Of a DNA stretch of 64,000 nucleotides, positions 17,422 through 19,074 are shown in pieces; positions within the stretch are counted from its first letter, which is position 1, and each line of letters opens with the position of its first letter. Position numbers and translations under genes: made by a program. The stretch is from Staphylococcus phage Machias. The stretch lies in sequence record MW349128.1; one strand, given 5' to 3'. Below the pieces are notes generated by a model. That model made no database searches and was not told the origin of the DNA. It saw only the letters and a list, made by a program, of their open reading frames with translations.

Positions 17422-17671
17422 TGTTAATCAGTCCACTTTTATAGAAATATAAAAGTAAAAAGAATATTAATTGCTGGAAAGGTTCATTAACCTAATCAGC
17501 ATCAAGTTTATAAAACTTGTTCAACGACTAAATATATTCACTCTTATTAAGAGTATGATATAGTCTGTGCTCTAAATTAATAATTTAGAGATTGTATAAA
17601 ATACGGATAAAAAATTCATATCAGAAATTCTTCTAACATATTTTTATAATATGATTAGGAGGTGAAATTAA

Positions 17672-18877
17672 ATGATAAATAAAAATGGAAAATTGGTTAA
17701 ATCTTTCAAAACTAGAATATACCCAAACCAATATCAAAAAGATTACTTCAATAAATGTTTTGGTGTAAGAAGAAAAGTATGGAATATGGCACTTGAAGAT
17801 TATCAAAATAGAAATGATGATGTTAAATTTAATGGATTCAATTATCAAAAAAGATTAAATAACGAAATATTTGAATCTGGAAAATATCCTTATCTTTTTG
17901 AAGTCAATAGTATGATAAGACAAGAAGCATTAAAAGATCTTAATCAGAAATTTGTAGAATATTATAACAAGCAAAAGAAATCTAGAAAGACTAATGATAA
18001 CTTGGATCCTGAAAAATTTAAACCTAAATTTAAAAAGAAAAAACACTCTAATGAATCTTTTAGGTTCATGGTAAAAGATAGAAAAAAATTGCCCGTAAAA
18101 ATTTTAGGTAGTAAAAGATTTTCAATTATTAATATGAGAGGTAAGCCTTGGCTTGATATAAAATCCAAAGAATCATTAAATTTTATAAATTCTAATAATC
18201 ATAGATTCCTTACTTACACTATAAGCAGAAAAAATGAGAAGTATTACATCTCGGTAACTTATGAGATAAACAATTATAAGAAACCAAGAGAAAAAAGCGA
18301 TTCAATTGGTATTGATATGGGTATGAAAACACCATTATCATGTGTAGACTCAAATGGTAAAACTTTTGAATTTAAAATACCACATGGGTTATGGATACAA
18401 GAGAGAAAAACTGAAAAGTTGCAAGAAAAACTATCAAGTAAGAAATATTATTCAAAATCATATTATAAAACTTTAAGACAATTGAGAAAGTCCTATAATA
18501 AAGAATGTAACATATTAGAAGATTATAGAGATAAAATTACTAATTGGTTAGTTAAAAACTATAAAGTAATTAATATAGAGCCCTATAGTCATACTGCAGG
18601 ACAGAATTTTAAAAATATGCGAAGATCTAATAAAAGATTTGGTAAGTGGGATTTCTTAGAAAATAAACTTAAAAATAAATGTGAAGAATATGATAATGAA
18701 TTAAATATTATTACTAAAAGAAAAACTACGCAAACATGTTCATCATGTGGTTATGTTAGAACTAATAAAGATAGATTAGTTTTAGGTGATGAAATACATG
18801 ATTGTCCTAATTGTGAAGTAGTTCTTGATAGAGATTCAAATGCAGCTAAAAATATTCTAGATTTAAAATACGTTTAA
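17672..18877 (+). CDS. tnpB: TnpB (IS200/IS605-family OrfB, RuvC-like RNA-guided nuclease)
   Basis: N-terminal OrfB_IS605 signature (KxxKTRIYPN..Q..Y..KCFGVRRKVWN). RuvC-I IGIDMG. Zn finger CSSCGYV...CPNCE. RuvC-III DRDSNAAKNIL. Confidence 0.9.
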   Translation: MINKNGKLVKSFKTRIYPNQYQKDYFNKCFGVRRKVWNMALEDYQNRNDDVKFNGFNYQKRLNNEIFESGKYPYLFEVNSMIRQEALKDLNQKFVEYYNKQKKSRKTNDNLDPEKFKPKFKKKKHSNESFRFMVKDRKKLPVKILGSKRFSIINMRGKPWLDIKSKESLNFINSNNHRFLTYTISRKNEKYYISVTYEINNYKKPREKSDSIGIDMGMKTPLSCVDSNGKTFEFKIPHGLWIQERKTEKLQEKLSSKKYYSKSYYKTLRQLRKSYNKECNILEDYRDKITNWLVKNYKVINIEPYSHTAGQNFKNMRRSNKRFGKWDFLENKLKNKCEEYDNELNIITKRKTTQTCSSCGYVRTNKDRLVLGDEIHDCPNCEVVLDRDSNAAKNILDLKYV

Positions 18878-18879
18878 TT

Positions 18880-19074
18880 AATTTCACAAAATAAAAAGAT
18901 ATGAGAGTCGCCTGCGGTCAGCGGGAGACGATAAACGGGTGATAAGCTAATGTCTGATTAGCTTTACAAGGAGTGAGAAGGATCCTTCTCACGTTAGTTA
19001 CTGAGCCAAGTGTATTTTATACAAGGTCTTGCCTTTAGATATTCATTATCTAAAATCAAGATTTAACAAGACAG
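18880..19074 (+). ncRNA. GC-rich structured region downstream of tnpB: candidate TnpB omega-RNA scaffold and/or intron 3' domain
   Basis: Hairpins GCTAAT-GTCTG-ATTAGC and the perfect palindrome GTGAGAAGGATCCTTCTCAC, plus GC-rich CGCCTGCGGTCAGCGGGAG. Ends at the intron 3' splice site. Confidence 0.3.

Follow-up and report, generated by a model that had tools for sequence, protein, structure and literature searches.

Organization of the locus

The window analysed here, a stretch of 64,000 nucleotides (sequence record MW349128.1, to which all positions refer), comes from the Staphylococcus jumbo phage Machias, and the DNA surrounding the locus is 86-98% identical to that of other S. aureus jumbo phages, among which PB50, AH12, MarsHill, Madawaska, S6, PALS_2, DC4, LY01 and SA1 were compared. 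Its plus strand carries a gyrB gene, recognized by Pfam assignment of the open reading frames (ORFs) downstream of the insertion, which is split near its start by an element that combines a predicted group I intron core, a tnpB gene and a structured 3' RNA (17422-19074, plus strand), and which we interpret as an IStron-like mobile unit. Exon 1 (17350-17421) comprises 24 codons (MTSTYSGSNIKHLEGLEAVRHRSD) ending in LEGLEAVRHRSD, with TCGGAT as the last six bases, and its reading frame is terminated by a stop codon inside the intron. Exon 2 (19075-20516, 1442 nucleotides) starts with MYVGAIDG, and its first 20 nucleotides (ATGTACGTTGGTGCAATTGA) are the candidate guide and target discussed below.

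In PB50, whose gyrB is 97.9% identical gene-wide, the gene is continuous (protein CATCGTAGTGAT/ATGTATGTTGG, junction CGTAGTGAT/ATGTATGTTGG); because it reads through uninterrupted, the insertion can be placed at exactly 17422-19074, a length of 1653 nucleotides. The site is empty in six phages, namely PB50, PALS_2, LY01, AH12, MarsHill and SA1, and the first 20 nucleotides of exon 2 are matched in the intronless gyrB at 20 of 20 positions in PALS_2 and at 19 of 20 in LY01, PB50 and MarsHill, the mismatch in PB50 being at +6. The element is a precise in-frame insertion in gyrB. The six uninterrupted homologues bear out the initial annotation, made from the letters of the window alone, which had separated a 24-residue exon 1 from the MYVGAIDG exon by 1653 nucleotides and had suggested a comparison with relatives lacking the insertion; its extent of exon 1 holds, but the end of exon 2 is corrected to 20516, as a second intron follows.

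The group I core and the long-range helix

The Rfam match and covariation within the intron family predict a group I catalytic core, P1 to P9, at 17422-17590. In P1 (17418-17434) the exon sequence GGAU and the intron sequence UG (17418-17423) pair with CAGUCC (17429-17434), an arrangement obtained from the Rfam alignment, from the folding of an ORF-deleted construct and from direct reading of the sequence. The guide GUCC, at intron positions 10-13 (17431-17434), pairs with the exon GGAU (17418-17421), the 5' splice site lies at a U.G pair, and 19074 provides the terminal intron G. P2, with a GAAA loop, lies at 17435-17456, the R element at 17519-17533, the S element at 17555-17565 and P9 at 17570-17590. 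Of the parts that had been read into the core at the outset, GUCC with its exon partner, a GNRA-capped P2, R, S and P9 were located.

When the 276 nucleotides of 17405-17680 were searched alone, the Intron_gpI model (RF00028) aligned over its full length to 17413-17590 with 43.7 bits (E-value 3.4e-10), supporting the proposed group I assignment by a full-model, local match that does not attain the curated gathering score of 50. Only short slices recover the intron: the whole window gave no match at the Rfam gathering thresholds, and an E-value search of a 1.9-kb stretch did not return it. ORF-less sibling introns in the window score 35-41 bits with the same model. The 14-mer of the R element occurs ten times on the plus strand of the window against 1.2 expected, corresponding to ten family members, and in an alignment of 13 family members 16 of the 30 predicted pairs, distributed over P2, P6 and P8, show compensatory changes. 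We accept 17422-17590 as a probable group I ribozyme core, with the sub-threshold Rfam score as a caveat, and its resemblance to Twort-type phage introns suggests an IA2-like subgroup. The only sense-strand ORF of at least 60 amino acids in the intron is tnpB, and no LAGLIDADG, GIY-YIG, HNH or His-Cys box endonuclease is encoded in it. Two mutually dissimilar hairpins lie near the ends of the element, P2 at 14 nucleotides from the left end and 19034-19054 at 20 nucleotides from the right end.

Directly after P9, the sequence 17592-17604 (UUGUAUAAAAUAC) is exactly complementary over 13 bp to 19012-19024 (GUAUUUUAUACAA), a match reached by none of 500 shuffles; we refer to this helix as P9.1. 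At the same place a helix of 10-15 bp with differing sequence is present in all eight elements examined, which represent six lineages, so that the helix covaries. It appears to enclose the tnpB cassette, as expected for an ORF in a peripheral loop, and tnpB and the structured RNA are accordingly predicted to sit within a peripheral helix, between P9 and the last ~50 nucleotides of the intron.

The family to which this core belongs is densely represented in the window, with ten introns in 64 kb and two clusters, three introns around 33.0-33.6 kb (33045-33560) and four around 50.2-51.0 kb (within 48465-50961), where introns are only 200-250 nucleotides apart and the exons are therefore very small. 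The gene at 47300-51354 is apparently of the RNA polymerase beta type, and within one of its introns a 325-residue ORF (49274-50251) extends into the R element. gyrB itself is split a second time, between SDAD and DDG, by an ORF-less intron of this family (20517-20694, 178 nucleotides, RF00028 35.1 bits); this intron is preceded by CCGAT, and its ends are fixed by the intronless allele of SA1. In PALS_2 this position is occupied by a much larger insertion (L002, 2951-3814) with a 287-residue ORF annotated as hypothetical, and the second gyrB intron site thus hosts differing intron cargo in different phages.

The TnpB protein and its promoter motif

The tnpB gene (17672-18877, 401 residues) is preceded by the Shine-Dalgarno sequence AGGAGGUG at 17657-17664. 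Its product contains the Pfam domains HTH_OrfB_IS605 (PF12323, 45.9 bits), OrfB_IS605 (PF01385, 53.7 bits) and Cas12f1-like_TNB (PF07282, 59.7 bits), all above their cut-offs, and aligns end to end with the ISDra2 TnpB structures in the PDB, although it is only about 25-30% identical to characterised IS605 TnpBs. D215, E303 and D388 align to the ISDra2 RuvC catalytic triad, and these residues, together with the four cysteines of a CCCC zinc finger (C356, C359, C378 and C381), are invariant in ten homologues down to 39% identity. Comparison of the Machias gene with two copies from LY01 gave ratios of nonsynonymous to synonymous substitution rates (dN/dS) of 0.13-0.20 at dS values of 0.5-0.76. 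To judge from these comparisons tnpB is intact and under purifying selection, and the three domains, the triad and the zinc finger substantiate the earlier description of an intact TnpB. The Machias and LY01 proteins have been annotated only as 'transposase' or 'hypothetical protein'.

An AR9-type late promoter motif, AACA-N6-TA, is found at 17635-17646 on the plus strand, with a predicted transcription start at 17646; the consensus in AR9 is AACA-N6-U(A/G) (PMC5449584). The motif occurs exactly once in the spacer, 34-39 nucleotides upstream of the tnpB ATG, in seven of the eight elements. The background density of AACA-N6-T(A/G) on the plus strand of the window is 0.69 per kb, with 44 occurrences on that strand and 15 on the minus strand. 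The plus strand also bears all ten family introns and the examined genes.

A second TnpB gene in the window (61746-62951) is intergenic and encodes a protein of 401 residues that is 26% identical to the first; a hairpin lies upstream of it (~61668-61698), with no group I core and no TnpA nearby, and it looks like a conventional TnpB-only insertion sequence. In LY01, a 380-residue 'mobile element protein' about 1.6 kb downstream of gyrB (L235, 6082-7224) is probably another TnpB, and tblastn finds six TnpB-like places in that phage in total.

The 3' RNA and the intron tail

The region from the end of tnpB to 19074 has a G+C content of 37%, rising to 46% in its core, against 24% in the window; perfect hairpins occur in it, and its predicted fold is more stable than those of shuffled sequences (z = -3.4). 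The initial annotation had described it as a GC-rich palindromic region of 195 nucleotides, which is right as to the hairpins and short by a little as to the length (197 nucleotides). Within it lies a closed RNA domain at 18907-19011, which is the candidate core of the omega-RNA scaffold. Its conservation extends to relatives whose TnpB is 38% identical, and it is predicted to consist of SL-A (18907-18929), a closing helix (18938-18940/19005-19007), SL-B (18945-18963), SL-C (18973-18992) and a terminal AAGU. The closing helix covaries (GGU/GCC, GAC/GUC, CUC/GAG and GGG/CCC), and compensatory changes affect 14 of the 22 predicted pairs of the domain. Beyond the 3' strand of P9.1 lies a two-tier hairpin (19024-19064; 19024-19031/19057-19064 and 19034-19041/19047-19054), which we term P9.2 or SL-E and which has an equivalent in every lineage. 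The 3' tail (19063-19074, UUAACAAGACAG) ends in ACAG, with the terminal G at the 3' splice site, and is identical in the metagenomic lineages L005 and L244 and conserved at 10 of 12 bases in L013 and L008, despite TnpB identities of 38-48%. ORF-less sibling introns share only its UAAC start; the 3' motif taken at first to be family-wide is so only in these four bases, the full 12-nucleotide tail being specific to TnpB-bearing introns.

Among the Machias copy and the two LY01 copies the RNA flanks are 87-92% identical and tnpB 80-88%, the RNA identity exceeding that of tnpB in both comparisons with Machias and equalling it between the two LY01 copies; constraint on the RNA parts is hence no weaker than that on the coding sequence. 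The 3' RNA and TnpB have diverged together, which is what one would expect if the RNA were an omega-RNA scaffold, and the RNAs following TnpB relatives of about 30% identity that lie outside introns (P0011, P0013) are unrelated to the 3' RNA. Covariation and co-divergence are thus consistent with the omega-RNA scaffold originally suggested for this region, and a match to a known Rfam family is not part of the support. An alternative pairing of the 3' strand of the long-range helix, with the adjoining upstream segment in a local hairpin, is available in L005, L244, L243 and L013; it gives five stem-loops and a possible switch between two folds, which resembles what has been described for a clostridial IStron (PMC13521648; 10.1101/2023.11.20.567912).

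Two further candidates in the element were rejected. A pseudoknot between GUUAG (18993-18997) and UUAAC (19063-19067) covaries in L008, is broken in one LY01 copy (LY01b) and is absent from L243, which is too weak a record. An ancestral intron ending in AUAUCAG (17627), with the insertion sequence placed directly behind it, was also considered; the 36 nucleotides after P9 are no closer to the tails of ORF-less siblings than shuffled sequence.

Copies in unrelated genes and distant relatives

LY01 holds the complete unit twice, once in the gene for the beta subunit of its virion RNA polymerase (L003, 2492-4141) and once in a gene of more than 1700 codons (L004, 2254-3897). Homology of both copies to the Machias element begins at the first intron base and stops at UUUAACAAGACAG, and the 3' flanks are unrelated. 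Each of the two sites is uninterrupted in eight phages, and the exons join in frame at all three sites. Ends that coincide with splice sites and copies in unrelated genes are the defining behaviour of IStrons (PMC4227781). The three copies compared (Machias gyrB and the two in LY01; Machias encodes two further paralogues, P0003 and P0005) show ends at the predicted splice sites, and in all of them core, TnpB and 3' RNA are conserved and apparently intact. Taken together, these alignments indicate that ribozyme, TnpB and 3' RNA form a unit that is mobile as a whole. They also sustain the initially proposed IStron-like anatomy of a 5' group I core, TnpB, a structured RNA and the 3' splice site, the same unit recurring in three unrelated genes. 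In the virion RNA polymerase beta region of LY01, three more introns of the family (L003, 5490-6175; R elements at 5584, 5892 and 6101) fall within 700 nucleotides downstream of the TnpB-bearing intron.

Relatives of TnpB at the next level of similarity (38-48% identity) come from phage-like metagenomic contigs of five lineages, all of which have R and S elements upstream of tnpB and a homologous RNA downstream. From this common layout it follows that the association of the TnpB clade with the intron predates the divergence of these elements. On the three longer contigs, L005, L008 and L013, tnpB lies between same-strand ORFs, with gaps of 250-400 nucleotides upstream and 170-400 nucleotides downstream; one of the metagenomic insertions is in a Peptidase_S77 prohead-protease gene, and on another contig a phage-type DNA polymerase gene is located two ORFs upstream. 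An IMG/VR search with the TnpB alignment returned only relatives of 26-29% identity, and exact scans of viral, genome and metagenome collections for the conserved 16-mer GGGAGACGATAAACGG gave ~200 loci, all of them chance occurrences after filtering by flanking motif.

Recoding of the exon at the 5' splice site

All three copies, in gyrB and in the two LY01 genes, are preceded by CGGAT. The corresponding intronless alleles read AGTGAT in gyrB (six phages), and CCTGAT or CCAGAT and GCTGAT or GCAGAT at the sites of the LY01 genes. At each site a G at exon position -4 is present only in the intron-bearing allele (TCG against AGT, CCG against CCT/CCA and GCG against GCT/GCA), and at each the change is synonymous; in gyrB the serine codon AGT has become TCG, the sole serine codon ending in G. 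With this G all four exon bases of P1 are paired (GGAU with GUCC). The exon may have adapted once the element was in place, or insertion may have been restricted to rare variants that already had the G; on both readings P1 pairing, hence splicing, would be under selection. The C at -5 was considered as a part of the target and dismissed; it is fixed by the codon in all three genes (TCG, CCG, GCG) and is not independent evidence. Among the metagenomic relatives, 5' flanks were read in L005, L243 and L244, the 5' splice sites of L013 and L008 not having been placed confidently; they comprise TTGAT, ATGAT and, in L005, GTGGT, which the internal guide sequence of that element matches. The inferred ancestral flank, (S)TGAT, resembles TTGAT, the target of ISDra2 and of group A IStrons (PMC4227781), without being identical to it.

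The outer flank motif recurs once inside the intron wherever it can be read, as CGGAT in Machias (17603-17607, plus strand, between the long-range helix and the promoter motif), CTATGAT in L243, TTGAT in L244 and TGGT in L005. Across lineages the inner motif changes in parallel with the outer flank, and in L243 the similarity spans about 24 nucleotides. Conceivably the motif is the inner end of a transposon, mimics the splice-site helix or was left behind when the chimera formed.

A proposed mode of action and its alternatives

Based on these observations we propose that the element is a TnpA-less IStron of the IS200/IS605 type, whose ribozyme carries tnpB and a structured RNA, whose guide would be taken from exon 2 and whose TnpB would act in homing; to this joint reading we assign a probability of about 0.58. 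In the gyrB pre-mRNA, the helix 17592-17604/19012-19024 would bring the 3' splice site to the core, and the intron would then self-splice and restore GyrB. Late in infection, the non-virion RNA polymerase of the phage would start at ~17646, inside the intron, and the resulting transcript, which has neither the ribozyme core nor the helix's 5' strand, could not splice and would double as tnpB mRNA and omega-RNA. Extending past the 3' splice site, this omega-RNA would have the first ~16-20 nucleotides of exon 2 as guide. Directed by it, TnpB would cleave the intronless gyrB (GTGAT/ATGTACGTTGG) of co-infecting relatives, and repair from the Machias copy would install the element, a process of homing that could possibly also exclude markers of the rival. 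A more specific version of this scheme, to which we hold only tentatively and at odds well below even, would have an IStron lineage that has adapted to phages and is restricted to AR9/PBS1-like jumbo phages with uracil-DNA. Two promoters would split the fates of its RNA, the host transcript being spliced and the internal late transcript providing tnpB mRNA and guide, and TnpB would work on uracil-DNA as a programmable nuclease of homing or competition between co-infecting phages.

With regard to the guide, we lean towards the view of the initial annotation, in which exon 2 would be the guide, with a scaffold that would run to 19074: the whole unit evolves and spreads, conservation of its tail is limited to introns with TnpB, there are many empty target alleles, and the region after AAGU is structured. 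Several observations weigh against the proposal as a whole or in part. The scaffold is closed at 19011 and the next 63 nucleotides to the splice site vary among lineages; in canonical TnpB systems the guide directly follows the scaffold. A copy of the flank motif, CGGAT, is found inside the intron at 17603-17607, the 5' flank of L005 is GTGGT, and since intron-bearing alleles have GGAT and intronless ones TGAT or AGAT, there is no defined target-adjacent motif (TAM). The RF00028 score of 43.7 bits stays under 50, and the 3' RNA matches no Rfam family. The DNA of Machias is presumed to have uracil in place of thymine (10.1101/2020.12.14.422802), which bears on cleavage by TnpB. Finally, no Y1 TnpA or tnpA fragment is encoded in the window, and TnpB does not explain how the unit reached new genes, for which a trans-acting transposase or reverse splicing would be required. 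When the phage collection was searched for TnpA, Staphylococcus fell outside the ten most frequent genera, and 17 further genera had at most 3 records each.

Some of these points would find a ready place if the TnpB cassette (~17608-19011) were a separate IS605-type element nested in the loop of an intron hairpin, the intron being merely a harmless landing site. The scaffold would then end at AAGU (19011), the guide would be the following intron sequence (GUAUUUUAUACAAGGU), and TnpB would cut TnpB-less copies of the intron beside the inner CGGAT, with GTATTTTATACAAGGTCTTG as the inner candidate target. The closed, covarying domain ending at 19011 with variable sequence beyond it, and the identity of inner and outer motifs in every readable lineage, fit such nesting; moreover, without 17608-19011 the intron would retain a perfect hairpin of 13 bp, its loop being GGAU, and a 64-nucleotide leader, tnpB and a 134-nucleotide right end are a layout typical of TnpB-only insertion sequences. 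Yet neither 50,697 phage records nor the window yielded a TnpB-less intron with the hairpin, P9.2 and tail, and a nuclease so guided would therefore have no known target, although TnpB is under purifying selection. Six lineages keep the cassette at one place in one intron type, and it is the whole unit that appears at new sites. The sequence after AAGU looks structural rather than guide-like, as it forms the local hairpin in L005, L244, L243 and L013, and the conserved 12-nucleotide tail is left without explanation. We consider nesting unlikely, while taking it seriously. We regard it as still less probable that TnpB has no role as a homing nuclease, or has lost it, and is a passenger or co-opted, for example for RNA binding that modulates splicing, the unit spreading by reverse splicing, an in-trans transposase, a homing endonuclease or a phage reverse transcriptase. 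The missing TnpA and three different insertion sites, which lie beyond what TnpB homing could reach, speak for this, as do the fit of all three sites to the guide GUCC, which reverse splicing would require, the retron-like reverse transcriptase and many homing endonucleases encoded by these phages (10.1101/2020.12.14.422802) and the reported repression of splicing by TnpB binding in a clostridial IStron (10.1101/2023.11.20.567912). The invariant triad and zinc finger in ten homologues down to 39% identity, the dN/dS of 0.13-0.20 and the possession by tnpB of its own conserved promoter motif and ribosome-binding site argue for a functional nuclease gene, and the T or A at -4 of the intronless alleles means that the sampled sites did not fully match the guide before insertion.

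That the element might not be removed from the mRNA at all, gyrB being simply split and a GyrB without its first 24 residues being made from the ATG at 19075, is in our view very improbable. Exon 2 does start with ATG, and split genes are common in jumbo phages. Against this, no Shine-Dalgarno sequence precedes 19075, exon 1 encodes the conserved N-terminal arm, with Tyr5 and Ile10, which in E. coli GyrB contact ATP in the partner subunit, the ribozyme core is complete with correct splice-site nucleotides, two other in-frame copies have no ATG at the start of the 3' exon, and the exon changes restore P1 at all three sites.

Relationship to known IStrons and phage introns

By its predicted parts the Machias element is an IStron in the structural sense, and it most resembles those of group A, of the IS605 type. 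A model of IStrons has been published (10.1101/2023.11.20.567912; PMC13565253); elements without TnpA count as IStrons (PMC4227781; PMC13565253), and homing by TnpA-less IStrons has been proposed (PMC13565253). With the group A IStrons of C. difficile (CdISt1 and the CdiIStrons) it shares, as far as descriptions go, a 5' IA2-like ribozyme, an IS605-type tnpB, a structured 3' RNA, ends that are splice sites, copies in unrelated protein-coding genes and the frequent lack of a full-length TnpA (10.1101/2023.11.20.567912; PMC4227781). The flank in Machias ends in GAT and the 3' end in CAG, to be compared with TTGAT and TCAG in CdISt1, group A elements also using ATTAT or TTTAT (PMC4227781). It differs from group A in its host, a lytic uracil-DNA jumbo phage and not a bacterial chromosome, in having no tnpA fragment and only 67 nucleotides from the long-range helix to the tnpB ATG, in the flank CGGAT, inferred to have been (S)TGAT ancestrally, and in the phage late-promoter motif before tnpB. 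The group B, IS607-type elements CboIStron and CbISt3/4 likewise include intron-TnpB chimeras on a phage genome (PMC4227781). Their omega-RNA has five stem-loops and a 3' end overlapping the 3' splice site, and splicing and guide-RNA formation are mutually exclusive in them (PMC4227781; PMC13521648). Unlike the Machias element, with its U.G splice-site pair, GAT flank and absence of TnpA, they have a serine TnpA, insert after GG, end in CGG, form a G-C splice-site pair and reside on plasmid-like prophages.

Like the introns of T4 td, Twort, SPO1 and AR9, the element belongs to a self-splicing class, occupies an essential DNA-metabolism gene of a lytic phage and carries a nuclease ORF in a peripheral loop, and spread by double-strand-break repair in co-infection is expected for both; its core is of the same family as the ORF-less and endonuclease-bearing introns of the window. 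In contrast to those introns, the nuclease is a TnpB, targeted by a guide RNA, and not a protein-only endonuclease, and elements of this type are found at non-homologous sites, which is not the product of classical homing. With ISDra2 the TnpB/omega-RNA module has in common the domain architecture, the catalytic residues, the position of the RNA downstream of tnpB and a flank like the TTGAT TAM, whereas the Machias element lacks TnpA and is embedded in a ribozyme.

The initial annotation had called such a chimera in an essential gene of a virulent phage unusual. Carriage by a phage has precedents, as IStrons are already known on the C. botulinum phages c-st and D-1873 (PMC4227781); what remains particular is the lytic host and the essential genes. 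The description of the Machias genome reports introns in gyrB and other genes with no mention of TnpB, transposase or IStrons (10.1101/2020.12.14.422802), and our literature search turned up no account of this lineage, nor of TnpB within the introns of jumbo phages. The features that set this IStron apart are its lytic uracil-DNA host, the essential genes that it interrupts, the internal late-promoter motif and the recoding of the exon at -4.

To our knowledge, IStrons have been studied almost only in Clostridia, where the effect of TnpB homing on spread is hard to measure. A lytic phage with the element in essential genes and with sequenced relatives that have empty sites offers a direct test bed for RNA-guided homing. 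PB50, PALS_2, MarsHill and LY01 hold both empty sites and near-perfect candidate targets, and homing, co-conversion and competition between phages would be measurable in crosses with them. Such a system would show whether TnpB acts on uracil-containing DNA, and whether the reported conflict of splicing with guide-RNA formation is overcome by the use of separate promoters.

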